Shown here: one piece after another, positions 39,161-56,129 of the stretch
How positions within the stretch are numbered: position 1 is the first letter of the stretch
How the letters are laid out: the number at the start of each line of letters is the position of its first letter
Assembly: GCA_035549075.1 (NCBI GenBank)
Contig: DASZRT010000151.1
Location: 26,693 to 90,692, forward strand
Length of the DNA stretch: 64,000 bases
Direction: 5' to 3'
From: Polyangia bacterium
GTDB lineage: Bacteria; Myxococcota_A; Polyangia; Fen-1088
Notes under the pieces: model-generated
The model's input: only the letters and a program-made list of their open reading frames with translations
Database searches by the model: none
Told to the model about the DNA's origin: nothing
Position numbers and translations under genes: made by a program

Positions 39161-39243
39161 GCGCGAAGCCTATCTCAGAAGGGCCGTGCGTCGAATCACG
39201 TGAACGAAGAAGACCTTGTCACCGGCAGAGCGCGCAGGAATAG

Positions 39244-40380
39244 TTGCAAGTCGCGGTGTTCAAGGCCTCTCGCATCGCTCTGATCGCGCTGATCTCGCTC
39301 GCGTGCTCGGGTGCCGGCAACCCCGGCACGGGAACCGGCGGCACCGGCGGCGTCGCCGACACCGGTGGAAGCGCCGACACGGGCGGTGCGCCCGCGACCG
39401 GCGGCAGCGGCGGCGCGCCCGCGATCGGCGGCACCGGCGGCGCTCGCGACCCCCTCGACACGGCGCCGTGGCGGCCGCTCTCGATCACGGCGACGAAGGG
39501 CCTGCACCAACACATGGTGTTCGGCGAGACCTACGTCGGCGTCGACACGCGAGCCGCGAAGATGGCCGGCAAGCTGGTCGTCGATCTCGGCGTCGACCAA
39601 GGCACGTACCTGCCGTGGCTCGGCAAGCGCGGCTTCCACGTGTTCGGCGTGAAGTTCTATCACTGCCAGCACATCGACAATTGGAGCGCGCCCTACGGCC
39701 GCGATTACCCGACGAACTGCCGTTTGCAGACGTTCGACGGCATGGCGCGCGGCGGGGCCGAAAACGACGCCAACGGCAACGTCACCGCCACCAACAACAT
39801 CGCGTACAAGATCAAGACCGGCCTCGCGATGCTGCACGCGTCGTACCCGCAGGAGGATTGGGGGTACTTTCTCAACCAAGACGGCTCGGTCCGTTGGTCC
39901 GACGTCGCGATGACGGGTTACTCGCACGGCGCGCAGACGGCGGCGATGCTCGCGCACTACGTACGCCTCTACCGCGTCGTCTCGCGCTCGGGCCCGCGCG
40001 AGAACAACTGTGGCAACGGCGCGCTCGTGGGCGCCTACGATCCGAACAACCCACCGTTCAAAGCCAACTGCGACATGAGCCAGTGGGGCTCGTGGGAAGA
40101 CGTTCCGTTCGTCACGCCCGTCGAGCGCGTGTTCTCGTTCGCCGGCACGATGGACACGCAGTTCGGCGACGACATGTGGAGCTGCGATCACATGAAGTAC
40201 GTCGGGCTGCCCTTCGACGTCTCGAACACGGCGCCGCCGTACGACGGCCTGACCTACGACGGCTCGCACCGCTTCATCAGCAGCGAGGGCCACACCGCCT
40301 TCGACTCGAAGCCGAGCGAGCTCCAAGCCGAGAACGCCGCCTTCGGCGTCCTGCCCGAGAACCTGAACCCCAATTTCTAG
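39244..40380 (+). CDS. Secreted lipoprotein with a Gly-rich linker and a putative alpha/beta-hydrolase (GYSHG) domain
   Basis: Lipobox ISLACSG. GxSxG nucleophile-elbow-like MTGYSHGAQTAAML. Cys-rich. Confidence 0.7.
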   Translation: MQVAVFKASRIALIALISLACSGAGNPGTGTGGTGGVADTGGSADTGGAPATGGSGGAPAIGGTGGARDPLDTAPWRPLSITATKGLHQHMVFGETYVGVDTRAAKMAGKLVVDLGVDQGTYLPWLGKRGFHVFGVKFYHCQHIDNWSAPYGRDYPTNCRLQTFDGMARGGAENDANGNVTATNNIAYKIKTGLAMLHASYPQEDWGYFLNQDGSVRWSDVAMTGYSHGAQTAAMLAHYVRLYRVVSRSGPRENNCGNGALVGAYDPNNPPFKANCDMSQWGSWEDVPFVTPVERVFSFAGTMDTQFGDDMWSCDHMKYVGLPFDVSNTAPPYDGLTYDGSHRFISSEGHTAFDSKPSELQAENAAFGVLPENLNPNF

Positions 40381-41870
40381 TGCGGCAGGCGCAGCGCGAG
40401 CATGGCGTCGATCGTCGATTGAGGGACTTGCGACGGCAGGCCCGGCAACAGCGTCGCGATGGAGGCCGGCACGGCGTCCGGGTGAACGAGCGCGAGCTGC
40501 ACGGTGCGCGAGGCGACGTCGTACAGCGCGATGAAGTAGCGGTACCCCGTCGCGGGGCGGCGGAACGCCGCGCCCACGCTCGTCTTGTTGACGACGGCGC
40601 CGGCGGCGGCTTCGGTGTTGCCCGTCTTCTTGTTGACGAGGTCGACGGACGCCGGCAGCGCCGAGACGTCGCACTTCGTGCCGCACGGGCCCTCGCCCAC
40701 GTAGCCACCGTAGCCGAAGAAGTTGGTGCTGATGATGTCGAGGTTCTTCGAGGTGTTCTTGTCGTTGACGACCTCGAAGGCGTTCAGCTGGCCGCAGCCG
40801 TCCCCCGAGTAGTTGGCGGTCGCCGGAGGCACCGGCGGGTACGAGTAACACTGGCACGAGTTGTAGAGGCCTTGGCGCACGAGCTCACCGTGGCTGATGC
40901 CGATCCAAGGCGCGTCGTACCAGCCGTCGGTCGCGTCGTTCTTGCAGTTCTGCGCGTTCGTGATCGCGCCCGATCCGTAGTGCGGCATGGTCGCGAGGAT
41001 GATGAACATCTTCGAGCCCGACCAGCCGTAGTCCTTGCTCTTGCCGGCGCCCGGCGCGGGGCAATACGGATCGCTGCCCGGGCCACAGGGGAACGCCATC
41101 CCCGACGAGACGTCGACGAAGCAGTCGTTGCCGACGACGCCCGTGAGACCGGTCGTGCCAGGCGTCATCGGCCCGCCCGAGAACGTCATGTTCGTCGCGG
41201 CCGTCGGGCTGCGCGCGTCCCACGACGACGCCAGCTTCCATGTGCCCGTGAGGCCCGAGACCGGCTGGTAGACGGCGAACTGCTTGACCAGCATCGGGCC
41301 GCGCAACGACACGGCGAGCTCTTCGTCCCAGGGCGTGAGCTGCGTACCGGTGATGACCTTGTTCGTGAGGCAGCACGTGACGTTGCCCTTGGAGTCGGTG
41401 GTCTTCTGCACGTCGCACGGGCCGACGGCGGGATCGCGTCGCGTCGGGTACATACCGGCGGCGCCGATCATGGGGAAGGTGATCGTAGCGCCGTCGGAGA
41501 CGGGCCCCGCGGCGAGGCCGGGATACGGACCGAGGCCGCCGCCCGCGCCAGGCGCGCCGCCGCTCCCCGTCGCGCCGCCCGAAGCCGTCGTGCCGCCGCT
41601 GCCCGGCGTGCCTCCGCTGCCGGTTGTACCGCCCGGCGCCGTCGTGCCGCCGCCGCCGGTCATGCCCCCGCCGCTCGACGTCGTGCCGCCGCGGCCCGGC
41701 GAGCCGCCGGTGCCACCGCTCGCGTGGCCGCCCGCGCCGCCCGTCGTTCCGCCGCCGCCGGACGATCCGCTGGTGCCGCCGCTGGCGCCCGTCGTGCCGC
41801 CACCGCCGCCGCACGCCGCGAGGCTCAACACGGCTCCCAAGACCATCGCGAGCGTCGTTTGACTTTTCAT
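40377..41870 (-). CDS. Secreted Cys/Gly/Tyr-rich lipoprotein, hypothetical (497 aa)
   Basis: An internal ATG gives MKSQTTLAMVLGAVLSLAAC. About 110 aa of GG(T/S) linker, then a Cys-rich globular domain. Convergent with the previous gene; their stops share CTAG. Confidence 0.7.
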   Translation of the reverse strand: MKSQTTLAMVLGAVLSLAACGGGGGTTGASGGTSGSSGGGGTTGGAGGHASGGTGGSPGRGGTTSSGGGMTGGGGTTAPGGTTGSGGTPGSGGTTASGGATGSGGAPGAGGGLGPYPGLAAGPVSDGATITFPMIGAAGMYPTRRDPAVGPCDVQKTTDSKGNVTCCLTNKVITGTQLTPWDEELAVSLRGPMLVKQFAVYQPVSGLTGTWKLASSWDARSPTAATNMTFSGGPMTPGTTGLTGVVGNDCFVDVSSGMAFPCGPGSDPYCPAPGAGKSKDYGWSGSKMFIILATMPHYGSGAITNAQNCKNDATDGWYDAPWIGISHGELVRQGLYNSCQCYSYPPVPPATANYSGDGCGQLNAFEVVNDKNTSKNLDIISTNFFGYGGYVGEGPCGTKCDVSALPASVDLVNKKTGNTEAAAGAVVNKTSVGAAFRRPATGYRYFIALYDVASRTVQLALVHPDAVPASIATLLPGLPSQVPQSTIDAMLALRLPH

Positions 41871-41891
41871 CGCGACACGAGAGTTTATCGC

Positions 41892-43876
41892 ATGGCCTCG
41901 ATCGCCGACACGAAGCGCGCGCTGGACGCGCGTCACGCGAGCCTCGTCATTATTTCTTCGCTCGCCGTTTCATGCGCGCCCGGGCGCGCCGTCGTCGGCC
42001 TCGAGCGCGGCAACGACGAAGGCGCGGGCGGCAGCGGCGGCGCGACCTTCGATTTGTCGCCGATGCTCGCCGATTGGCCGCGCCTCGCCATCGGCACCGA
42101 GAGCCGCTCGATCTCCAGCTTCGATCGCGCCGGCGGCAACGACGACGGCTTCTCGGGTCGTTACTCCGAGCTCTACACCGACGAGAAAGGCGAGCACGTC
42201 ATCGTCGACGTCGGCGGCCCAGGACGCCTCAACACGCTCTGGTTCACGAGCGCCGTGAGCGGCACGGCGCCGCTCGGCCTCGGCCGCCTGCGGTTCTACG
42301 TCGACGGCGCGACGACGCCCACCTTCGAAGCGGACGCCGATCGCCTGTTCGCGGGCCAGGTCGCCGGCTTCCCGCGCGCGCTCGTGTTCGACAACCGCCG
42401 CAGCACGGGCGGTTTCGTCTCATACGTGCCCGTCACGTTCCGCTTCGGCCTGCGCGTCACGACCGAGAACAAGCCGGCTTTCTACAACGCGCAGATCGAC
42501 TCGTTGCCGGCCGACGCCGTCGTCGAGAGCTGGTCACCCGACGCGGATCTCACGAACGCCCTCGCGTCCTTCGGCGCCGGCTCGACGACGAGCGGAGACG
42601 AACCGAGCGACGACGAGGTCACGCTCGACAACGAGCGCGACGGCCCCGGCCTCGTGACGCGTCTGACGTTCTTCCCTTCCGGTTCACCCTCGGCGGCCGA
42701 GCTGCGCGCCGCGCGCGTGCGCATCTTCTGGGAAAACGAAGCGCACCCCAGCGTCGATGGCCCCGTCGACGCGTTCTTCGGCAGCGGCCTCGGCGTCGCG
42801 CCCGTCGCCTCGGCGGCGTTCGAGATGTCGCCCGCCCGTTTCGTGAACCGCGTGCCCATGCCGTTCTGGCGCCACGCGCGCGTTCAACTCACGGGCGTCG
42901 CGGGACGCCTCTTCTTGCACGTCGTCGAAAATCCCTACGACGAGTCTCACACCGCGCATTTGCACGTCACGTGGCACGAAGAGCGGCCCACGACGTCGCC
43001 CGACGACTTCGAGTACGTGACCTTCACGGGCGCCGGCAAGCTCGTCGCCACCGTGCTCACCGTCGAGCCGCCCGATGCCGCGCGCGACAAGCAATGGTGG
43101 GAAGGCGACCTGCGCTCATCGGCCGACGGCCGTCGCACCCCCGGCATTCAAGGCACGGGTTACGAGGACGACCACTTCGGCGGCTGGAGCAACGAGTTCT
43201 TCTCGACACCGTTCTCGCTGCCGCTGTCGGGCGAGCCCGCGGCGCACATCCTCGATCGCAACGGCCAGTACAACGGCGACGTCACCATGTACCGCGTGTG
43301 GCCGGGCATCCCGTTCCTCGGCGAGCTTCGCCACAGCGTCGAGCACGGCGACCAGAACGGCCGCGCCGTGAACGAATCGGCCGCGACGTTCTTTTACGGC
43401 GAGCCGCGATCGTGGCTCGTCACGTCCGACACGCTGGACCTGTGCGACGCCGACGCGCGGACGGCGCATGGCTTCATGCCCTTCGGACAGACGCGGCTCG
43501 ACACGCTCACGAGCCGCTTCGAGGGCCGCGACCCGACGCCCATCACGCACTGCCACCTCGCGCAGTCGAACACAGTGACCTTCAAGCTCGCCGTGCCGGC
43601 CACCAACGAAGGTGTCTACCTGCGCCGCTGGTTCGATCAGGCGACGGGCCCGCAGGCCGCGGTCGTCTCGGTCGACGGCGAATTCGTCGAGGTGTGGTCG
43701 ATCGCCGAGACGAACGCCTCGGCCAATTGGGCCGAGCGCGATTTTTCCTGCCGAAAAGCTTCACGGCGGGCAAAACGACGATCGAAGTGAGCCTCTCGAC
43801 CGAAACCGACATGGGCCTCGTCGCCTGGGACGCCGCTCGCTACCAAGCCGTCGCCGTCGTGCCGCCCGCGCCGTAA
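41892..43876 (+). CDS. DUF2961 (GH172-like) family protein with an apparent frameshift in a T5 run near the 3' end (frame 0 up to ~43745, frame 2 thereafter); possible pseudogene or sequencing error
   Basis: Frame 0 (track ORF ending 43790) gives a coherent protein up to ...ASANWAERDF, then junk (SCRKASRRAKRRSK). Frame 2 continues with protein-like FLPKSFTAGKTTIEVSLSTETDMGLVAWDAARYQ to the stop at 43876. Adding one T to ttttt (43742-43746) would join the two frames. Confidence 0.7.
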
Positions 43877-43933
43877 ACGACGAAGCCACGACGTCGCACC
43901 ACGCGCTCGGTGAACCGTAGTACAACACGCGGC

Positions 43934-45235
43934 ATGTCGGCCACCGATGGAATGGCGAGCAGCGCGCTCGATCGCGCCCGAAGCAAAGCCTTTTGGCACC
44001 TGCTGCCGCTTTGCTTCTTTTGCTACGTCCTCAGTTACGTCGATCGAACCAACATCTCGATCGCCAAGTTGACCATGAAGGGCGACCTTCCCTGGTTCAC
44101 CGACAAGGTGTTCGGCGACGGCTCCGGTTTGTTTTTTCCCGGCTACGTCGTGCTCGCGATCCCGGGCGCGCTCATCGTCGAGCGGTGGGGCGCGCGCAAG
44201 CTCATCACGGGCTCGATGGTCTGCTGGGGCATCGTGGCCGGCGCGATGGCGTTCATCAGCTCGCCGCTTCAGTTCTACGTGTTTCGTTTCTTGCTGGGCG
44301 TCGCCGAGGCCGGCTTCTTCCCGGGGATGATCGTGTTCCTCACGCACTGGTTCCCCACTCGCGATCGCGCGCGCGCGACGGCGACGCTCATCATCGCCAC
44401 CCCGTTCTCGCAGATCGTGAGCCCCAAGCTCTCGGGCGCCATGTTGCACATGGACATGCTCGGCCTCAAAGGCTGGCAGTGGATGTTCATCAACTGGGCC
44501 GTGCCCGCCGTGGTCCTCGGCGCGCTCATCCTGTTGCTGCTTCCCGACCGCCCCAGCGAGGCCCGCTGGCTGACGGCGGAGGAGCGCGACGCGCTCGAGC
44601 AAGAGCTGGCTCGCGAACGTCTCGCGCGCGCGGGAAAACAAAAGATGAAGGTGCTCGAGGCGCTCACACACCCCAAGGTGCTGTTGCTCGCGCTCGCCTA
44701 CTTCCTGGCCGTTTCGGCCAATTACGGCCTCGAGTTCTTCCTGCCGACGATGTTGAAGGACTGGTACAAGCTGCCGCTCGACACCATCACGTGGCTGCTC
44801 ATGCTGCCGCCGGCCGCGGCCTTGACGGGACAGCTCTTCGCGGGCTGGCACTCGGACCTGCGCAAGGAGCGGCGGTTGCACACCGTGGTTCCTCTGCTGA
44901 TCGGCGCGGTGACGCTCGTGCTCGTGAGCCGCACGCAAGGAGCCCTCGCGCTCACGATGGCGTGCTTCGTGTTGGCAGCGGCTGGCATCAAGTCGTACCA
45001 ACCGTCGTTCTGGGCGCTCCCGCCCCTTCTGTTGTCCGAGGCGGCGGCGGCCGGAAGCATCGGCTTCATCAACGCGATCGGAAATCTGGGCGGTGCTTTT
45101 GGTTCGTCCATGATGGGACGAGTCCGAACCGCAACGGGGTCATACGGTGGAGGATTGACTGTCCTCTCCGTGGCCATGTTGGCGTCGGCCGCGATCATCT
45201 TTTTCATCGGCCTCGGAAAGCGGACCGAGTCGTAG
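43934..45235 (+). CDS. MFS transporter, anion:cation symporter family (hexuronate/aldonate/sugar-acid type)
   Basis: 12 TMS. Motifs LSYVDRTNISIA and GAMAFISSPLQFYVFRFLLGVAEAGFFPG. ATG 43934; an alternative in-frame GTG start lies at 43910. Confidence 0.85.
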   Translation: MSATDGMASSALDRARSKAFWHLLPLCFFCYVLSYVDRTNISIAKLTMKGDLPWFTDKVFGDGSGLFFPGYVVLAIPGALIVERWGARKLITGSMVCWGIVAGAMAFISSPLQFYVFRFLLGVAEAGFFPGMIVFLTHWFPTRDRARATATLIIATPFSQIVSPKLSGAMLHMDMLGLKGWQWMFINWAVPAVVLGALILLLLPDRPSEARWLTAEERDALEQELARERLARAGKQKMKVLEALTHPKVLLLALAYFLAVSANYGLEFFLPTMLKDWYKLPLDTITWLLMLPPAAALTGQLFAGWHSDLRKERRLHTVVPLLIGAVTLVLVSRTQGALALTMACFVLAAAGIKSYQPSFWALPPLLLSEAAAAGSIGFINAIGNLGGAFGSSMMGRVRTATGSYGGGLTVLSVAMLASAAIIFFIGLGKRTES

Positions 45236-45263
45236 GCCGCGGCGGATCGCCGCGTCTCGCAGA

Positions 45264-45316
45264 AAGAACGTTCCGGAAATCGTTCTTCTGCGTTTGATTG
45301 GCCCGCTCGTGTATAA
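45264..45316 (+). promoter_or_regulatory. Candidate promoter/operator: inverted repeat AGAACG-TTCCGGAA-atCGTTCT followed by a TATAAA box ~33 nt before the start codon
   Basis: TATAAA is an AT island in 70%-GC DNA. A GGAGGA RBS lies 8 nt before ATG 45350. Confidence 0.35.
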
Positions 45317-45349
45317 AGAAGCGGCCACAACGGAGGACACCGCCTTTCC

Positions 45350-45739
45350 ATGTCGAACATTCAGTCAATCGTTGAAGATTTCGCCAATGAGCTGAGCGCG
45401 CTCATCGAAGAGCAGGTGCTCACGCGCGCGCGCGCCGCCGTCTCAGCCGCGCTCGGCGGCGCCGCCCCCAAGCGGGGCCCGGGCCGTCCCCCGAAGGCCG
45501 CCAAGCTGCTGTCCGCCGTGGGCGTCGCGCCCGGCCGCAAGAAGCCGCGCAAGAAGGCGCCGCCGCAGCTCTGCCCCGTCCCCGGTTGCAAGAACAAGGC
45601 GGCCCCGATCTTCGGCATGGTGTGCTCCGCGCACAAGGACGTGCCCAAGGCGAAGATCAGGGAGTACCGCGAGGCACGCCGCGCCAAGAAGGAAGGCAAG
45701 AAGCCGAAGGGCCGCAAGGCCGCGGCCGCCAAGGCATAA
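45350..45739 (+). CDS. Small basic AT-hook (HMGA-like) DNA-binding protein with a C2CH zinc-knuckle-like motif (129 aa)
   Basis: KRGPGRPPKAAK and PGRKKPRKKAPP AT-hook-like motifs. CPVPGCKNKAAPIFGMVCSAH. Lys/Arg-rich C-terminus. Confidence 0.75.
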   Translation: MSNIQSIVEDFANELSALIEEQVLTRARAAVSAALGGAAPKRGPGRPPKAAKLLSAVGVAPGRKKPRKKAPPQLCPVPGCKNKAAPIFGMVCSAHKDVPKAKIREYREARRAKKEGKKPKGRKAAAAKA

Positions 45740-45821
45740 AGGGCGCGGCGACGGCTCGCGGGCCGCGCCGAGCCCGTCGGGCGCTTGCACGGGAGCCGAA
45801 TTCCCTTTAACAATAAGGGCC

Positions 45822-46583
45822 TTGGCTCAGTCTCACAAAAGCTACAACTACTCGAGGAGCCATCGTCTCCTCGAGATTGTCGGCATCGCGGGCCTGTTCA
45901 TCCTGCTCGCCTACGTCGCCGTCCGCCTCGTCATGGGCGTGTCGACGATGTCACAAGGGCTCGCCGTCCTCGGGACCATCACGGTCGGGTATTTCCTGAC
46001 CGACTTCATCTCGGGCTTCGTGCACTGGGCGGGCGACACGCTCGGCAGCGAGACGATGCCGATCATCGGCGCGACGTTCGTCAAACCCTTCCGCTTCCAC
46101 CACGTGGACCAGAAGGACATCACGCGCCACGACTTCATCGAGACGAACGGCAACAACTGCATCCTGTCGTTGCTGCTCATGCTCCACGTCGCGATCCTCA
46201 TGCCGCGCTCGCCGGGCTTCTTCTTCTATTACGGCGCGCTCATGTTCTCGATCGCGCTGTTCACGCTGGGCACGAACCAGTTCCACAAGTGGGCGCACGC
46301 CGAGCCCGAGACGTTGAGCCCCGTCGTGCGCGGTCTTCAGCGCGCGGGCCTCATCCTCTCTCCCGAGCACCACACGACGCACCACACGGCGCCGTACGAG
46401 ACTTACTACTGCATCACGCACGGCATGCTGAACCCGCTGCTGGCGCGCATCCGCTTCTTCCGCCACGCCGAGCGCTTCTTCCAGACGGTGTGGCCGTCGC
46501 TGCTGTACCTCGACGAGCGCGTGAAGTTCGAGGCCGCCAAGCGCGCCGCCGAGGCGCCGGCGCCGACGGCGCAAGCCGGCTGA
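45822..46583 (+). CDS. carF: CarF/TMEM189 (Kua-domain) family membrane lipid desaturase homolog (plasmanylethanolamine desaturase-like)
   Basis: Four TM helices and clustered His boxes (FVHWAGD, FRFHHVD..RHD, HKWAH, HHTTHH, ITHG) as in the Kua/TMEM189 family. Confidence 0.55.
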   Translation: MAQSHKSYNYSRSHRLLEIVGIAGLFILLAYVAVRLVMGVSTMSQGLAVLGTITVGYFLTDFISGFVHWAGDTLGSETMPIIGATFVKPFRFHHVDQKDITRHDFIETNGNNCILSLLLMLHVAILMPRSPGFFFYYGALMFSIALFTLGTNQFHKWAHAEPETLSPVVRGLQRAGLILSPEHHTTHHTAPYETYYCITHGMLNPLLARIRFFRHAERFFQTVWPSLLYLDERVKFEAAKRAAEAPAPTAQAG

Positions 46584-49074: not shown

Positions 49075-49554
49075 TCAGCGTTTCGCTGCTTCTTCGGCGA
49101 GGCGCTCCTCGAGCACGGCCGAGAGCGCTTCGGCGAGCCGGCGCCGCGTCTCCTCGGGCAGCGCCGTCACGGCGCGCGGCGTCTCCATCGTCCGCGCCCA
49201 CAGCTTCTCTCGCAGGTGACGGCCCTTGTCCGTCAGCACGAGCACCTTGATGCGCCGATCGGTCTCGTCGGCGCGCCGCGCGGCGAGGCCGCGCGCCTCG
49301 AGCTTGTCGACGATCCCCGTGATGTTCGAGGCGTCGCAGGCGAGCTCTTCGGCGAGCGCGCTCATGGGCACCGGCTTCTCGGGATCGATCGAGCGGACGG
49401 CGTGGCCCTGCATGGGGGTCAGGTCGAACTCCGCGCACATCGCGACCCACCAGGACTTCTGACTGAGCAGAAACTCGATCATCACCGGCCAACAGTCGTC
49501 GGCCGACAGCTTCTTCACCCGATTTCGCCGGGGATTTTTGAGCTTGTCATCCAT
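49075..49554 (-). CDS. MarR-family transcriptional regulator
   Basis: Winged-helix core LAEELACDASNITGIVDKLEARGLAARRADETDRRIKVLVLTDKG; 159 aa. Divergent from the RND operon. Confidence 0.9.
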   Translation of the reverse strand: MDDKLKNPRRNRVKKLSADDCWPVMIEFLLSQKSWWVAMCAEFDLTPMQGHAVRSIDPEKPVPMSALAEELACDASNITGIVDKLEARGLAARRADETDRRIKVLVLTDKGRHLREKLWARTMETPRAVTALPEETRRRLAEALSAVLEERLAEEAAKR

Positions 49555-49579
49555 CCGCAGCTAATACTTTCACACAACT

Positions 49580-49625
49580 TAATAATTGACAACTTCAATC
49601 TTTATCGAATACGAATACCATCGCT
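49580..49625. promoter_or_regulatory. AT-rich divergent promoter/operator region between marR and the RND operon (TTGACA -35-like hexamer; ATTGA-N5-TCAAT partial palindrome; tandem CGAATA repeats)
   Basis: About 35% GC in a 70%-GC genome. TTGACA at ~49586-49591. GAGG RBS before ATG 49654. Confidence 0.4.
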
Positions 49626-49653
49626 TCACACCCACTGACCAATGAGGTCCGTC

Positions 49654-50760
49654 ATGAGAGTCCGTCCGTCGAGCTTCCTCGCGCACCCGCTTCCGCTCTT
49701 GCTCGCGCTCCCGCTGGTCATCTTCGAGGCGGGCTGCCACAAGTCGTCGGCCGAGGCGGCGCCGACCGAGGCCAAGCCGGAGGCCTCGGCGCCGGTCGCC
49801 GTCAAGGCGTTCGAGGTCCGCGAGCTCAAGGTGCCGCGCACGCTCACGCTCTCGGGCTCGCTCATCGGCTCGGAGGAGGCCAAGGTCGCCGCGGGCGCCG
49901 CGGGCAAGGTGCTCGCGACGTACGTCGAGCGCGGCGCGGTCGTCCACAAGGGCGCTTTGCTCGTGAAGCTCGACGCGCGCACGCTGGGCGCGCAGGCCGA
50001 GGAGGCGTCGGCGCAGGTCGAGTCGCTCAAGGCGCAAGCGGCGCAGGCGCAGCTCGACTGCGCGCGCACGCAGCAGATGTTCGACAAGGGCGCGATCTCG
50101 AAGGCCGAGTACGATCGTCAGCACACGGCCTGCACGACCTCGAAGTGGTCGGTGTCGGCGGCCGAGGCGCGCAAGACGCTCACGGCCGAGGCGCTGCGCG
50201 ACACCGAGATCCGCGCGCCCTTCTCGGGGATGATCGTCGAGCGCTTCGTGAGCGCCGGTGAGTACGTGCAGCCGGCGACGCCCGTCGTCGAGCTCGTCGA
50301 CGTCGACGCCCTCCGCGTCGAGCTCACGGTGCCCGAAGCCGACGTCGCGCAGGTGCGTCAGGGCATGCCCATAGACTTCCACACGGCCGCCAACGACGAC
50401 GGCCCCGCCTACCACGGCAAGATCCGCTACGTCGGCCCGTCGGTGCGCGAGAAGACGCGCGACGCCGTCGTCGAGGCCGCCGTCGAGAACCAGGGCCACG
50501 ATCTGCGCCCCGGCATGTTCGTGCAGGCGCACCTCGCGCTCGGCGTGCAGTCGCTGCCGGCCGTGCCCGCGGCCGCCGTGCGCACCGAAGGCTCGCTCAA
50601 GCACGTGTTCGTCGTGCAGGACGGCCGGCTCGAGGATCGCCTCGTCCAGGTCGCCGACGTCGTCGACGGGCACGTGCCCGTCTTGAGCGGCCTCAAGGCC
50701 GGCGAGAAGATCGCCGCCGAGGCCACCCCCGAGCTGCGCGACGGCGCGAAGGTGCAGTGA
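49654..50760 (+). CDS. RND efflux periplasmic adaptor (membrane fusion protein, AcrA/HlyD family) lipoprotein
   Basis: Lipobox FEAGC, biotinyl-lipoyl hairpin, beta-barrel and MP domains; 368 aa. Confidence 0.9.
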   Translation: MRVRPSSFLAHPLPLLLALPLVIFEAGCHKSSAEAAPTEAKPEASAPVAVKAFEVRELKVPRTLTLSGSLIGSEEAKVAAGAAGKVLATYVERGAVVHKGALLVKLDARTLGAQAEEASAQVESLKAQAAQAQLDCARTQQMFDKGAISKAEYDRQHTACTTSKWSVSAAEARKTLTAEALRDTEIRAPFSGMIVERFVSAGEYVQPATPVVELVDVDALRVELTVPEADVAQVRQGMPIDFHTAANDDGPAYHGKIRYVGPSVREKTRDAVVEAAVENQGHDLRPGMFVQAHLALGVQSLPAVPAAAVRTEGSLKHVFVVQDGRLEDRLVQVADVVDGHVPVLSGLKAGEKIAAEATPELRDGAKVQ

Positions 50761-50767
50761 GGCCGCC

Positions 50768-53700
50768 ATGCAGTGGCTCGCATCGATCTCCGTTCGCCGC
50801 CCCGTCTTCGCGACGGTGATGATCCTGACGATCCTCGTCGTCGGCATCGTCGGCTACAAGCAGCTCAACGTCGACCGCTTCCCCAACGTCGACTTCCCCA
50901 TCATCTCGATCATCACGACGCTCCCCGGCGCCGCGCCCGAGGAGGTCGAGACCGAGCTCACCGACAAGATCGAGGAGGCCGTCAACACGCTGGGCGGCAT
51001 CGAGGAGCTCCGCTCGACCTCGACGGAGGGCGTCTCGCAGGTCTTCGTGACGTTCACGCTCGACAAGAACGTCGACACGGCCGCGCAGGACGTGCGTGAC
51101 CACGTGAGCCTCGTGCTGCCCGACCTGCCCGAGGGCACGAAGCCGCCCGTCATCAGCAAGCTCGACCCCGACGCCGCGCCCGTGCTCTTCATCGCCATGG
51201 AGTCGAAGATGGCGAACCGCGAGCTCACCGAGCTCGCCGATCACGAGGTGCGCCAAGCGCTCGAGAGCATCGAGGGCGTCGGTCAGGTCACGATCGTCGG
51301 CGGCCGCAAGCGGCAGGTCCAGGTGTTCGTCGACCCCGTGAAGATGCGCGCCGCGGGCATCTCGGCGACCGAGGTCCAGCGCGCCATCGTCTCGCAGAAC
51401 GTCACGATCCCGGGCGGCGCGATCGAGACCGGCCCGCAGCGCCTCACGTTCCGCGTGCGCGGCCGCATCCAGAACGTCGCGGGCGTCGGCGACGTCATCA
51501 TCCGCAACGTCGACAACCACCCGATCCTCGTGCGCGACGTCGCGACCGTCGTCGACGGCGAGGAGGAGGCCGAGACCGCGGCGAGGGTCAACGGCGTGCA
51601 GTCCGTCGTCCTGTCGATCCGCAAGCAGTCGGGCGAGAACAGCGTCGCCGTCGTCGACGCGCTCCGCGAGCGCATGAAGGAGCTCGAGAAGACGCTGCCC
51701 AACGACACCCACCTGCGCGTCATCCGTGACAACACCGAATCGACGCGCACGTCGGTCGACGCCGTGCGCGAGCACCTCATCTTAGGCGCGATCTTCGCGT
51801 CGCTCGTCGTCCTCGTGTTCCTCGGCCACTTCCGCAGCACGATCATCGCGGCGCTCGCGATCCCGACGTCGATCATCGGCACGTTCATGGCGATGTGGCT
51901 CATGGGCTTCACGCTCAACGTCATCACGCTGCTCGCGCTCGCGCTCGCCGTCGGCATCGTCATCGACGACGCCATCGTCGTGCTCGAGAACATCTTCCGT
52001 TTCATCGAAGAGAAGCGCATCCGCCCCATGCCGGCCGCGATCTACGCGACCAAGGAGATCGGCCTCGCCGTCCTCGCGACGACGCTGTCGCTGCTGGCCG
52101 TCTTCCTGCCCGTCGCGTTCATGAACAGCATCCCGGGCCGCTTCCTGCGCAGCTTCGGCCTCACGATGGGCGCCGCCATCGCGATCTCGCTGTTCGTGAG
52201 CTTCACGCTCACGCCCATGCTCGCGTCGCGCTGGCTGCGCGTGAAGACGGGCGCCGACGGCCACCACGACAAGGGCCCATTCGAACGGCTCGTCGACGTG
52301 TTCTACCGGCCCATCGAGCGCCTCTACATGAAGGTGCTCGGCTACGTCATCGACCGCCGCTGGATCGTCGTCGTCGCGTCGATCGCGACGCTGGGATCCT
52401 GCTTCCCGCTCGTCCAGAAGGTGCCGAAGGGCTTCATCCCCAAGAACGACGAGGCGCAGTTCGAGATCACGATCCGCACGCCCGAGGGCACGAGCCTCGC
52501 GTCGACCGAGCTCACCGCCGAGCGCGTCGCGCGCGAGGTGCGCGAATGGCCCGAGGTCACGGCCACGAACGTCACGATCGGCGACAACGCCACGAAGACG
52601 CCCAACCTCGCGTCGGTCTTCGTGCGCCTCGTGCCGCCCGACCAGCGCAAGCTCACGCAGGATCAGCTGCAGGACAAGGCGCGCAAGGAGATCGTCACCA
52701 AGCTCCCGAAGGACTGGCGCGTCTCGGTGCTCGCCGTCGCGGCCTTCGGCGGCGGCGCGTTCAGCACGGCGACGGTCCAGTACGTCTTGACGGGCCCGTC
52801 GCTCGAGAAGCTCGGCGAGTACGCCGACGCGATCTCGAAGAAGCTCAAAGCGGTGCCGGGCGCCGTCGACGTCGACACGTCGATGATCACGGGCAACCCC
52901 GAGGTCGTCGCCGTCGTGAACCGGCGCAAGGCCGCCGACCTCGGCGTCAACGTCCTCGACGTGTCGGCCGCGGGGCAGATCCTCGTCGGCGGCCTCAAGG
53001 TCTCGCGCTACGAGGAGAAGGGCCGCGAGTACGACATCCTCGTGCGTGCCGAGGACAAGTTCCGCTCGAGCCCCGAGGCGCTGTCGCTGCTCACCGTGCC
53101 CTCGTCGAAGCTCGGCACCGTGCCGCTGCTCGACGTCGTCGACCTCAAGCGCGACGAGAGCCCGTCGAAGATCGACCGCATCGCGCGCCAGCGCCAGGTG
53201 ACCTTCCTCGCCAACACGACGCCCGGCGTCGGCGCCGGCGAGGTCGGCTCGGCGCTCGAGAAGATCGTCGCCGACATGCACCTGCCGGCCGAATACCGCT
53301 TCGCGCCGTTCGGTCAGTCGAAGGAGCTCAAGCGCACGGGCGGCGCCTTCATCCTGGCCTTCGGCATGGCCTTCATCTTCATGTACCTCATCCTCGCGGC
53401 GCAGTTCGAGTCGTGGCTCCACCCCATCACGATCCTGCTGGCGCTGCCGCTCACGGTGCCGTTCGCGCTCTTGTCGCTGCTGATCTTCGGGCAGGCGCTC
53501 GACATCTTCACGATGCTGGGCATTCTGGTGCTCTTTGGGGTTGTCAAAAAGAACTCCATCCTTCAGATCGACCACATCAATCATTTGAGAAAAGAGGGCA
53601 TGAGCCGCCGCGACGCGATCCTCCACGGCAACCGAGACCGTCTCCGTCCGATCTTGATGACCACGCTGGCGTTCGTCGCCGGCATGGCGCCGCTCGTGAC

Positions 53701-53965
53701 GTCGAAGGGCATCGGCGCCGAGTTCAACCGCGCGACGGCCGGTCCCGTCGTCGGTGGGCAGATCCTGTCGTTGCTGCTGACGTTGCTCGCGACGCCGATC
53801 GCTTATTCGTTGTTTGATGACCTGTCGGGCTTCGTGCGGCGCAAGCTGGGCCTCAAGGACCGTCCCGACTCCGAGACGGGCGCGAGCGAAATCATGCCGC
53901 CGCCCGATGTGATCCCCAATGTCCATGACGGCCACGCCGTCCGCACTGCCGAGGTGACTTCGTGA
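50768..53965 (+). CDS. RND multidrug efflux pump, HAE1/AcrB family (1065 aa)
   Basis: N-terminal MQWLASISVRRPVFATVMILTILVVG. 12 TMS with two large periplasmic loops; conserved TM4/TM10 regions. Confidence 0.95.
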   Translation: MQWLASISVRRPVFATVMILTILVVGIVGYKQLNVDRFPNVDFPIISIITTLPGAAPEEVETELTDKIEEAVNTLGGIEELRSTSTEGVSQVFVTFTLDKNVDTAAQDVRDHVSLVLPDLPEGTKPPVISKLDPDAAPVLFIAMESKMANRELTELADHEVRQALESIEGVGQVTIVGGRKRQVQVFVDPVKMRAAGISATEVQRAIVSQNVTIPGGAIETGPQRLTFRVRGRIQNVAGVGDVIIRNVDNHPILVRDVATVVDGEEEAETAARVNGVQSVVLSIRKQSGENSVAVVDALRERMKELEKTLPNDTHLRVIRDNTESTRTSVDAVREHLILGAIFASLVVLVFLGHFRSTIIAALAIPTSIIGTFMAMWLMGFTLNVITLLALALAVGIVIDDAIVVLENIFRFIEEKRIRPMPAAIYATKEIGLAVLATTLSLLAVFLPVAFMNSIPGRFLRSFGLTMGAAIAISLFVSFTLTPMLASRWLRVKTGADGHHDKGPFERLVDVFYRPIERLYMKVLGYVIDRRWIVVVASIATLGSCFPLVQKVPKGFIPKNDEAQFEITIRTPEGTSLASTELTAERVAREVREWPEVTATNVTIGDNATKTPNLASVFVRLVPPDQRKLTQDQLQDKARKEIVTKLPKDWRVSVLAVAAFGGGAFSTATVQYVLTGPSLEKLGEYADAISKKLKAVPGAVDVDTSMITGNPEVVAVVNRRKAADLGVNVLDVSAAGQILVGGLKVSRYEEKGREYDILVRAEDKFRSSPEALSLLTVPSSKLGTVPLLDVVDLKRDESPSKIDRIARQRQVTFLANTTPGVGAGEVGSALEKIVADMHLPAEYRFAPFGQSKELKRTGGAFILAFGMAFIFMYLILAAQFESWLHPITILLALPLTVPFALLSLLIFGQALDIFTMLGILVLFGVVKKNSILQIDHINHLRKEGMSRRDAILHGNRDRLRPILMTTLAFVAGMAPLVTSKGIGAEFNRATAGPVVGGQILSLLLTLLATPIAYSLFDDLSGFVRRKLGLKDRPDSETGASEIMPPPDVIPNVHDGHAVRTAEVTS

Positions 53966-55260
53966 AGACCCTTCTCAAGACGACCGCTCTGGGTGTTTTT
54001 CTGGTGACCGCGCCGGCGTTGGCTCAGACCGCGCCGAGCGACGGATCTGAGCTCTCGTTCGATCAAGCCCTGGCGCTCGCGCGCAAGAACAACCGCGCCG
54101 TCAAGGTCGATCGCGCGCAGCTCACCGCGGCGCAGACGGCGACAGAGACGGCATGGTCGTCGCTGCTGCCGACGATCGCGGCGCAGGGAAAGTACACGCG
54201 CAACTACAAGCAGGTGGAGTTCCCGGCGGGCACGTTCGGGCCGAAGGGGCTGCTCCTCCAGCCGACCAACCAGTTGGACGGAACGATCAGCGCGACGCTG
54301 CCGTTGATCGCGCCCGCGGCCTGGGCCGCGCTCAAGTCGGTGCAGGCCAACGTCGACTCGGCCGAGGCGAACTTCGCGGCGCAAGAGGCCGATCTGCTCG
54401 TCCAGGTGGCGCAGACGTACCTCGCCGCCGCGGGTACCGACGAGCTCGTCACGGCGCGCCAGTCGAGCCTGAGCGTCGCGCGCGCGACGCTCAAGGACGC
54501 GGAGGTGCGGCTGGCCGCGGGCTCGGTCACGAAGGTCGACGTCGACCGCGCCGAGGTCGCCGTCGTCCGCGCCGAGCAGGCGGAGCGCGAGGCGCTCACC
54601 GCGCGCGAGCGAACCTACCGCGGGCTCGGGACGCTCCTCCAGTCCAACGTCCAGAAGGTCAGCACGACTTTCCCGACGGCGCCCGCGCCGGACGCCAACG
54701 ACGTCCAGACCGCGCTGCACCTCCGCCCCGAGTTCCGCGCGCTCGAGATGACGGCGCGCTCGGCCGATCAGGAAGCCAATGCGCGCGCTTGGCTCTGGGC
54801 GCCGAGCATCTCGGCCTTCGGCAACGCGCGCAAGTTCAACTACGACAACTTCGCGCTGGATCGCTACTCGTGGGCAGCCGGTGCTCAACTCGACTGGCTG
54901 CTGTTCGACGGCGGCTCGCGCGACGCGGCCCGACACCAGGCCAACGCGCGCGCCGCGGCGGCGCGCGAGCAGGCCTCCCTCTTCGGCGACACCGTGCGCG
55001 ACGATCTCGCCAACACGTCGGCTGACCTGCGCACGAAACGCGAGGCCGTCAACGCCGCGCAGAAGTCGGCGGCGCTGTCGCAAGAGTCGCTCGACCTCAT
55101 TCGCACGCAGTACACGGCGGGCACGGCGACGCAGCTCGACCTGCTGCAGGCGCAGGACGCCCTCGTGAGCGCGAACATCGCGCTCGTCCAGGCGCACTTC
55201 GACGTCGCGGCCGCGGACCTCGCGTTTCGCCACGCCGCGGGCACGTTCCCGCCTAAGTAG
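53962..55260 (+). CDS. Outer-membrane efflux protein (TolC/OprM-like OMF)
   Basis: GTGA overlap with the RND stop. Signal peptide LVTAPALAQ. Duplicated alpha-helical/beta-barrel repeats; 432 aa. Confidence 0.9.
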   Translation: MKTLLKTTALGVFLVTAPALAQTAPSDGSELSFDQALALARKNNRAVKVDRAQLTAAQTATETAWSSLLPTIAAQGKYTRNYKQVEFPAGTFGPKGLLLQPTNQLDGTISATLPLIAPAAWAALKSVQANVDSAEANFAAQEADLLVQVAQTYLAAAGTDELVTARQSSLSVARATLKDAEVRLAAGSVTKVDVDRAEVAVVRAEQAEREALTARERTYRGLGTLLQSNVQKVSTTFPTAPAPDANDVQTALHLRPEFRALEMTARSADQEANARAWLWAPSISAFGNARKFNYDNFALDRYSWAAGAQLDWLLFDGGSRDAARHQANARAAAAREQASLFGDTVRDDLANTSADLRTKREAVNAAQKSAALSQESLDLIRTQYTAGTATQLDLLQAQDALVSANIALVQAHFDVAAADLAFRHAAGTFPPK

Positions 55261-55295
55261 AACGAGAGGCAACGGGGCACGACGGAGCGCTCATC

Positions 55296-56129
55296 GTGCC
55301 TCCCTCGCTGATAGCGCCCGAGCTCGCGCGCGCGATCCTCGCGAGCTCGGGGCCGATCGTTTTCCTCACGGGCGCCGGGGTCTCCGCCGAGAGCGGCGTC
55401 CCGACGTTCCGCGGGCCCGAGGGCTACTGGCGCGTCGGATCGCGCAACTATCAGGCGACGGACCTCGCGACGGCCGAGGCCTTCGCGCGCATGCCCGACG
55501 AGGTCTGGCGCTGGTACCTCTACCGTCGCGGCGTGTGCCGCGCCGCCGAGCCGAACGCCGCGCACCTCGCGCTCGTCGAGGCCGAGCGGCGCTTCGGCGA
55601 GCGCTTCCTGCTCGTCACGCAGAACGTCGACGGGTTGCACGCGCGCGCCGGCAACACGGCCGCGCGCACGTACCGCATCCACGGCGATCTCGATCTGTGC
55701 CGCTGCGCCGACGGCTGCGCGCCGGCCGTGCGGCCCATGCCCGCTGCGATCGCGGTGGCGTGGGCCAAGGATCGCGTGCTCGACGACGACGCACGCGCCG
55801 CGCTCCACTGCGACTGCGGCGCGTGGCTGCGCCCGCACGTGCTGTGGTTCGACGAGGCGTACGACGAGCCGCTCTTTCGTTACCTCTCGGCGCGGCGCGC
55901 AGCCGGTGCGGCGGCCGCGCTCGTCGTCATCGGCACGAGTGGCGCGACCAACTTGCCCGCGCAGATGTGCGCGATCGTCGCCGCGCGCGCGGCGCCGCTC
56001 ATCGTGGTCGATCCCGATCCAGCGGCCTACGGCGCCGTCGCGGGCCGAGGCACGCGCGGTGTCCAGATCGTCGGCGGCGCCTGCGCCACCGTCCCCCCGC
56101 TCGTCGACGCACTCCTCGCGGCCGCCTAA
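55296..56129 (+). CDS. cobB: Sir2-family NAD-dependent protein deacylase (CobB-like)
   Basis: GAGVSAESGVPTFRG, QNVDGLH, zinc-ribbon cysteines CRC..C / CDC, GTSGA. Confidence 0.85.
   Translation: MPPSLIAPELARAILASSGPIVFLTGAGVSAESGVPTFRGPEGYWRVGSRNYQATDLATAEAFARMPDEVWRWYLYRRGVCRAAEPNAAHLALVEAERRFGERFLLVTQNVDGLHARAGNTAARTYRIHGDLDLCRCADGCAPAVRPMPAAIAVAWAKDRVLDDDARAALHCDCGAWLRPHVLWFDEAYDEPLFRYLSARRAAGAAAALVVIGTSGATNLPAQMCAIVAARAAPLIVVDPDPAAYGAVAGRGTRGVQIVGGACATVPPLVDALLAAA

Follow-up and report, generated by a model that had tools for sequence, protein, structure and literature searches.

Glycoside hydrolases of family GH172 (DUF2961) are retaining alpha-D-furanosidases that act on D-arabinofuranose (D-Araf) or D-fructofuranose (D-Fruf). 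They have been described as encoded by Mycobacteriales and their predators (PMC10115798). Four solved enzymes provide the structural paradigms: alphaFFase1 (7V1V), ExoMA1 (8IC8), Dg79 (8AH3) and BACUNI_00161 (4KQ7). These are proteins of about 370–460 amino acids (aa) whose active sites are formed across protomers in trimers, hexamers or dodecamers, some of them with a C-terminal helix. Two catalytic glutamates, about 19–22 residues apart, are the mark of the family. In alphaFFase1 the acid/base and the nucleophile are E270 and E291 (PMC8605356); the pairs of three further enzymes are E242/E264 (Dg67), E387/E406 (Dg71) and E256/E277 (Dg79) (preprint 10.64898/2026.08.13.744632). Dg71, also known as DgGH172b (HMPREF9455_02471), is an exo-alpha-D-arabinofuranosidase of Dysgonomonas gadei. 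It consists of three jelly rolls and a fourth domain of beta-sheet type: the active site is complete within one chain, and the fourth domain mediates dimer formation. Here we describe a GH172 gene from an uncultured soil-type myxobacterium of the class Polyangia. The gene lies in a 64,000-nucleotide (nt) stretch of DNA, referred to as the window (assembly GCA_035549075.1, contig DASZRT010000151.1, positions 26,693 to 90,692), and is interrupted near its 3' end by a frame break at a run of five T residues (T5). The enzyme family is a known one and the one-base frameshift an ordinary one, with no new mechanism behind it. A real and recent deletion is its most likely origin, an error of the consensus is less likely, and the break is not programmed.

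The break and the sequences on either side of it are made up of the following elements.
41892–43790, + strand: GH172 (DUF2961) gene in its present reading, encoding the 632-aa truncated product HVZ75389.1 (from translation, Pfam PF11175, the exact protein record and Foldseek).
43742–43746, + strand: T5 run, with five bases (43743–43747) where the conserved Phe-Phe needs six (from the frame switch; relatives have TTC TTC or TTT TTC).
43746–43790, + strand: out-of-frame tail SCRKASRRAKRRSK, with 14 basic residues, and TGA stop (from translation and homolog comparison).
43748–43876, + strand: what is left of the ancestral C-terminus, LPKSF...VVPPAP followed by TAA, read in the -1 frame (from homolog alignment, third-position GC and the structural model).
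Read in frame 0 from the ATG at 41892, the gene encodes 632 aa. From 43731 the codons run GCC GAG CGC GAT TTT TCC TGC, and 43740–43750 reads GATTTTTCCTG. The product ends ...NASANWAERDF-SCRKASRRAKRRSK at a TGA codon (43788–43790). Past the T5 run, the -1 (+2) frame reads FFLPKSFTAGKTTIEVSLSTETDMGLVAWDAARYQAVAVVPPAP, which amounts to 43 codons before a TAA at 43874–43876. Insertion of one base fuses both frames into a 661-aa protein containing ...WAERDFFLPKSF... at the junction. The initial annotation had placed the T5 run, the frame-0 stop ending at 43790 and the continuation of the second frame to 43876 correctly, as re-translation confirms. It had also proposed that a sixth T would join the two frames. 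One added base does restore the 661-aa reading, but the run need not have been T6.

Open frames carry little information in this DNA. The window has a GC content of 70.5% and the -1 frame is open for 750 codons; such openness follows simply from GC content and was rejected as evidence per se. Two mechanically called open reading frames (ORFs) on the + strand, 39216–43790 (1524 codons) and 41624–43876 (750 codons), span several real genes on both strands because stop codons are rare at this composition. The 1524-aa ORF, listed as reaching upstream of ATG 41892, was set aside as an artefact of stop-poor sequence.

The ancestral frame was identified from codon composition and from homologs. Third-position GC, measured in 90-nt windows, is high in the frame-0 phase (0.87–0.97) until the T5 run, and then in the phase of the tail (0.77–0.87) up to 43876. 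A codon-usage Viterbi path (seven states; codon log-odds from a training set of 12 window genes) puts the frame switch at 43741/43742. This path replaced a gene map based only on third-position GC, which was too noisy since antisense frames share the phase. Protein homologs comprise 251 matches; the best 120 of the 251 are mostly 600–700 aa long, and nearly all of them cover about 90% of the fused query. Thirty homologs align across the junction in one frame, and the conserved motif WAERDFF(L/I/V)P straddles the break. In the window protein and these 30 homologs E615 is invariant, while W613, A614, R616, D617, F619, P621, P637, W646 and Y651 are nearly so. Four of the five nearly invariant residues that fall in the tail (F619, P621, W646 and Y651) are retained in the window; the fifth, at position 637, is T in the window and P in 29 of the 31 sequences. 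At the DNA level, every one of the 28 related loci in which the WAERDFF motif could be located reads on in one frame, for a further 40–64 codons. The 43-aa tail alone, used as a tblastn query against the fetched loci, matches the end of the ortholog in the Polyangia locus L003 (E = 8e-11, in a small database). The stop of the tail also coincides with the ends of the orthologs, directly after ...VVPPAP; a second, compensating frameshift was considered and rejected on this ground. Aligned with the orthologs, it is the -1 frame that is conserved. The frame-0 tail SCRKASRRAKRRSK occurs in none of the homologs except a second assembly of the same population. Homolog alignment, the phase switch in third-position GC and the codon-usage path thus all bear out the view, first put forward in the initial annotation, that a single-base frameshift truncates a DUF2961/GH172 protein and that the downstream frame is ancestral.

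Membership of the gene in family GH172 (DUF2961) is supported at several levels. Pfam PF11175 is matched by residues 271–502 with E = 1.2e-40 (140 bits, cut-off 27), over profile positions 1–234 of 235, and DUF2961 has three matched stretches in the protein. PF28588, PF28589 and PF11175 are among the precomputed domains of every close homolog. NCBIfam supplied no name for the GH172 protein, nor for the Tos1-like protein encoded beside it. Sequence matches in the Protein Data Bank are the GH172 enzymes 4KQ7, 8IC8, 8AH3 and 7V1V, with E-values down to 1.6e-9, and residues 59–121 align to the start of the 4kq7 fold. The repaired protein was modelled with AlphaFold2 (predicted local distance difference test, pLDDT, 84.8; predicted template-modelling score, pTM, 0.87). 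The model has the double jelly-roll fold: Foldseek matches it to 4kq7, 8ic8, 8ah3 and 7v1v with probability 1.00, E-values of 7e-15 to 1e-12 and target TM-scores of 0.46–0.59. Its beta-rich blocks span residues of approximately 62–204, 241–345, 356–504 and 509–656, the last being the C-terminal beta domain. The functional sites upstream of the break are these.
41892–41975, + strand: predicted lipoprotein signal peptide, ending at Cys28 (TGC 41973–41975; from sequence reading and the ortholog pattern).
43101–43103, + strand: codon of E404 in the WWEGD motif, predicted acid/base catalyst (invariant column; WW.EGD aligned to 8ic8).
43164–43166, + strand: codon of E425 in the GTGYEDD motif, predicted nucleophile (invariant column; GTGTED of 8ic8 and 4kq7).
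Both glutamates are intact and invariant in 31 sequences. Their spacing of 21 residues is that of E270/E291 in alphaFFase1 and of E256/E277 in Dg79. The hydrophobic N-terminal stretch of the orthologs likewise ends ...AC/GC-G, and the GH172 protein is probably a lipoprotein.

The layout of the predicted protein resembles that of Dg71, as compared by description, and domain count and order in the model fit. The protein appears to have the '1.5 DUF2961' arrangement of Dg71, and in the model its jelly rolls are followed by a separate C-terminal beta domain. The two are of similar size (73.9 kDa for Dg71; a 661-aa precursor in the window) and carry the catalytic glutamates at comparable positions (E387/E406 and E404/E425, respectively). 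Unlike Dg71, which comes from a Bacteroidota isolate, the window gene belongs to a metagenome-assembled genome (MAG) of Polyangia, is not part of a polysaccharide utilization locus, and is cut inside its C-terminal domain. With alphaFFase1, ExoMA1, Dg79 and BACUNI_00161 the protein shares the catalytic fold and the conserved WWEGD and GTGxED motifs; in contrast to these, it is about 200–290 aa longer and has a predicted extra jelly roll and C-terminal beta domain.

The proposed course of the truncation is as follows. (i) One base would have been lost within the six that encode Phe-Phe of WAERDFF(L/I/V)P. (ii) Translation would depart from the ancestral frame after F618, add 14 unrelated basic residues and stop 86 bases early (43790 versus 43876). 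(iii) The predicted product retains the signal peptide, all jelly-roll domains and both catalytic glutamates, and would lack the last 43 residues. (iv) The C-terminal domain would be unable to fold, so that dimerization, by analogy with Dg71, would be lost and probably stability too. In the model, the lost segment comprises the end of strand 613–621, a helix at 622–625 and strands 630–636 and 650–656, with pLDDT values of roughly 87–97. The cut falls within the C-terminal beta domain and not at a domain boundary, and the segment is kept in 30 of 30 aligned homologs. On the model and the Dg71 analogy, the most likely outcome is a misfolded or non-dimerizing, probably unstable enzyme; the copy would then be a young pseudogene or a crippled allele. 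A different consequence of a real deletion can be envisaged, namely a tolerated C-terminal variant in which dimerization is lost and catalysis kept. Such a functional short form is consistent with the position of both catalytic glutamates and all jelly-roll domains upstream of the break, and with the intact state of the neighbouring genes. It is made improbable, however, by the removal of the end of strand 613–621 and of two further high-confidence strands from inside a beta domain, a loss that usually prevents folding of a beta sandwich, and by the conservation of the segment in all aligned homologs, with its nearly invariant F619, P621, W646 and Y651.

Which base was lost depends on the codons that preceded the event. 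Five bases now stand between GAT (Asp617) and CTG (Leu620), where six are required. The four closest relatives, L002, L003, L041 and L043 (61–67% identity, GC 0.69–0.72), have GAC TTC TTC at the site; GAT TTT TTC is found in only one relative, the distant L011 (GC 0.61). In the window as a whole, Phe is encoded by TTC 346 times and by TTT 23 times (TTC 94%), and the other four Phe-Phe pairs of the GH172 gene are TTCTTC in three cases and TTCTTT in one. The missing base may be either a T, from GAT TTT TTC, or a C, from GAT TTC TTC. Since the close relatives have TTC TTC and TTC accounts for 94% of Phe codons in the window, the T5 run may itself be the product of losing the C from TTC-TTC, rather than the cause of the event through a slippage-prone T6.

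Judged from sequence, the event is recent, or not real, because the remnant is still coding-like and its divergence does not exceed that of the corresponding segment in intact orthologs. The ratio of tail to body identity against orthologs is 0.61 for the window, and for intact orthologs at similar distance it has a mean of 0.65 and a range of 0.61–0.81. Third-position GC of the tail is also still high, at 0.77–0.87. An undecayed tail is equally expected if the break is a sequencing or assembly artefact, that is, if the 661-aa gene is intact in the organism and the consensus lacks one base at or next to the short T run. Some sequencing platforms are known to misjudge the length of homopolymers.

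Two separately deposited assemblies bear on this question. The exact 632-aa product is on record at NCBI as HVZ75389.1, 'MAG TPA: DUF2961 domain-containing protein [Polyangia bacterium]', from a 116,619-bp contig. A second assembly, GCA_964589105.1 (contig CAZPSI010000087.1, 14,915 bp; L001), encodes the same truncated protein with one substitution. The window and this contig align over 12,068 bp with no gaps, one single-nucleotide polymorphism (SNP) and an identical T5 run. The sole difference, G/T at 41941, changes Ser17 to Ile17 in the signal peptide of the GH172 protein. The SNP distinguishes the assemblies, and both have T5, which speaks against an artefact; with one difference in 12 kb, they could nevertheless share reads and, with them, an error. 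An exact pattern with an optional base, covering T5 and T6 versions of the site, gave no matches in JGI metagenomes.

The remainder of the window is informative about the quality of the consensus. The Viterbi path contains 13 direct same-strand frame switches. Twelve of these are normal operon junctions: the switch lies no more than 15 nt from the upstream stop, and at most about 25 nt separate that stop from a start codon of the downstream frame. The switch at 43741 lies 47 nt from the stop, and no start codon in its downstream frame defines a plausible gene. This junction is the only one of the 13 with such an offset, and indel errors are therefore not widespread in the contig. By this junction check, no other frame break was detected in the coding sequence of the 64-kb window, despite the presence of 57 homopolymer runs of at least five bases. 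A single detectable frameshift over 64 kb is not what a noisy long-read consensus would show. Two further points count against an artefact: should the organism have TTCTTC here, like its closest relatives, the missing base would not be a homopolymer-length error; and the contig names of related third-party-annotation (TPA) MAGs of the same taxon (not the window's own) are of the MEGAHIT or SPAdes type, which suggests short reads.

A real one-base deletion is favoured with good confidence over an artefact because T5 recurs in the second assembly and the window yielded no further frameshift; we infer that the origin of the deletion is biological and not technical. Several observations weigh on the other side. 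The two near-identical assemblies represent the same population and may share, or derive from, related public reads, so that their independence is incomplete. A long-read platform, if one was used, would make a homopolymer miscall plausible, and the tail shows no decay at all. As for the loss of function, the catalytic residues are intact and the C-terminal domain of Dg71 lies outside the active site; by analogy, the truncated enzyme could retain activity. With these points taken into account, an artefact is considered unlikely and a functional short form somewhat more so, and the account of a one-base deletion with truncation is, as a whole, probable. The initial annotation had left the choice between a recent inactivating mutation, a sequencing error and a slippery site: the first is now favoured, sequence error is less likely, and the third finds no support.

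The third possibility corresponds to programmed recoding, by -1 ribosomal frameshifting or by transcriptional slippage on the T run, or else to phase variation; short and full-length proteins would be produced from the same gene. Programmed -1 sites such as those of dnaX (A AAA AAG) and of insertion sequence (IS)-element transposases are similar in that a run of identical bases lies where two overlapping frames encode the full-length protein. A P-site tRNA-Phe on UUU (43743–43745) could in principle re-pair at 43742–43744, and decoding of UUC CUG would then give ...DFFLP.... A 7-bp hairpin can form at 43747–43770. The similarity does not extend to the elements required: the heptamer and the stimulatory element of the dnaX and IS-element sites are absent here, and relatives do not share the frameshift. 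(i) The frame-0 sequence GA T TTT TCC departs from the heptamer pattern X XXY YYZ, and UCC in the A site is unable to re-pair in the -1 frame. (ii) A stimulatory RNA structure is expected 5–9 nt downstream, or a Shine-Dalgarno-like element upstream. The hairpin at 43747–43770 is without a spacer, shuffled sequences fold as well as the 100 nt downstream (z = 0.15; equalled or bettered in 107 of 200 shuffles), no Rfam family matches within 41000–46000, and no Shine-Dalgarno-like stimulator is present in the 40 nt upstream. (iii) A frame break at the site is seen in none of the 28 related loci and in none of the 30 aligned homologs, so that nothing is conserved. (iv) Phase-variable tracts usually have 7 or more bases and vary in length between close relatives; here the tract has five, the same in both assemblies of the population. 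Such a run also falls short of the tracts for which useful transcriptional slippage or phase variation is known. Programmed frameshifting and phase variation are not supported, and we regard them as extremely improbable.

Only slightly less remote is a broader scenario in which T5 is real and the gene alive. Occasional -1 slippage of tRNA-Phe on U UUU might then yield some full-length enzyme, or a mixture of T5 and T6 in the population might turn a surface glycosidase of a predatory myxobacterium on and off, or the short form might be a natural, monomeric and active Dg71-type GH172 enzyme. The locus has the properties of ordinary bacterial pseudogenes and truncated alleles produced by single-base indels in short repeats: it lacks one base, the ancestral frame can still be recognized downstream, the stop is premature, and neighbours and orthologs are intact. 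No differences from such pseudogenes were found.

The GH172 gene is part of a conserved neighbourhood in the order Tos1-like lipoprotein, GH172, major facilitator superfamily (MFS) transporter, 129-aa basic protein and lipid desaturase. The same gene order occurs in two other Polyangia MAGs (L002 and L003), in which GH172 is intact. The genes adjoining GH172 are the following.
40377–41870, - strand: lipoprotein with Tos1-like N- and C-terminal domains, divergent from the GH172 gene (Pfam PF10290 and PF10287; orthologs in L002 and L003).
43934–45235, + strand: MFS transporter, downstream of GH172 and conserved there (Pfam MFS_1, E = 1e-46; same position in L002 and L003).
The Tos1-like protein matches domains of the fungal cell-wall protein Tos1/YJL171C (PF10290, E = 2.5e-9; PF10287, E = 3.9e-6). 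It is a predicted lipoprotein with a long Gly/Thr/Ser-rich linker, and its orthologs, 73–74% identical, occupy the same position in L002 and L003. The transporter gene had been annotated as an MFS sugar transporter. The MFS assignment and its coordinates stand; the best NCBIfam matches, however, fall below cut-off and are to organic-anion families (D-galactonate, TIGR00893, and HpaX, TIGR02332); the protein's NCBIfam matches include no sugar-porter model. The description as a carbohydrate-utilization locus consequently applies only loosely to a set of Tos1-like lipoprotein, GH172 enzyme and anion-type MFS transporter.

Further features of the surrounding DNA were recorded. The basic protein (45350–45739, + strand) is Lys/Ala/Pro-rich, contains a Cys/His cluster (CPVPGC...VCSAHKD), has no Pfam match, and is 77–82% identical to its counterparts at the same position in L002 and L003. 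Across 40377–46583, identity to these two MAGs is 73–74% for the Tos1-like protein, 61–65% for GH172, 53–56% for the MFS transporter, 77–82% for the 129-aa protein and 80–82% for the lipid desaturase; divergence from the orthologs is thus far greater for GH172 and MFS than for the flanking genes of the block. Farther downstream, at 49075–56129, a divergent MarR-type regulator lies beside a resistance-nodulation-division (RND) efflux operon, which encodes a membrane-fusion protein together with an ACR_tran pump (about 1065 aa), with a further gene after it; the content of this region was taken from gene calls on the second assembly together with the frame map.

The finding has consequences for annotation and, to a lesser extent, for biology. 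HVZ75389.1 is presented as a normal DUF2961 protein; it is really a frameshifted copy, the true C-terminus of which lies in another frame. For high-GC genomes in general, an open alternative frame alone is no evidence of coding, and codon-position GC and homologs decide. For Polyangia, the locus adds at most one more example of gene decay, within a conserved three-gene block of Tos1-like lipoprotein, GH172 and MFS transporter. A bacterial Tos1-like protein adjoining a GH172 enzyme may point to digestion of prey cell walls. In this copy the truncation may abolish the retaining furanosidase activity of the family, and as a natural truncation it can be used to probe the role of the C-terminal domain in Dg71-type GH172 enzymes.

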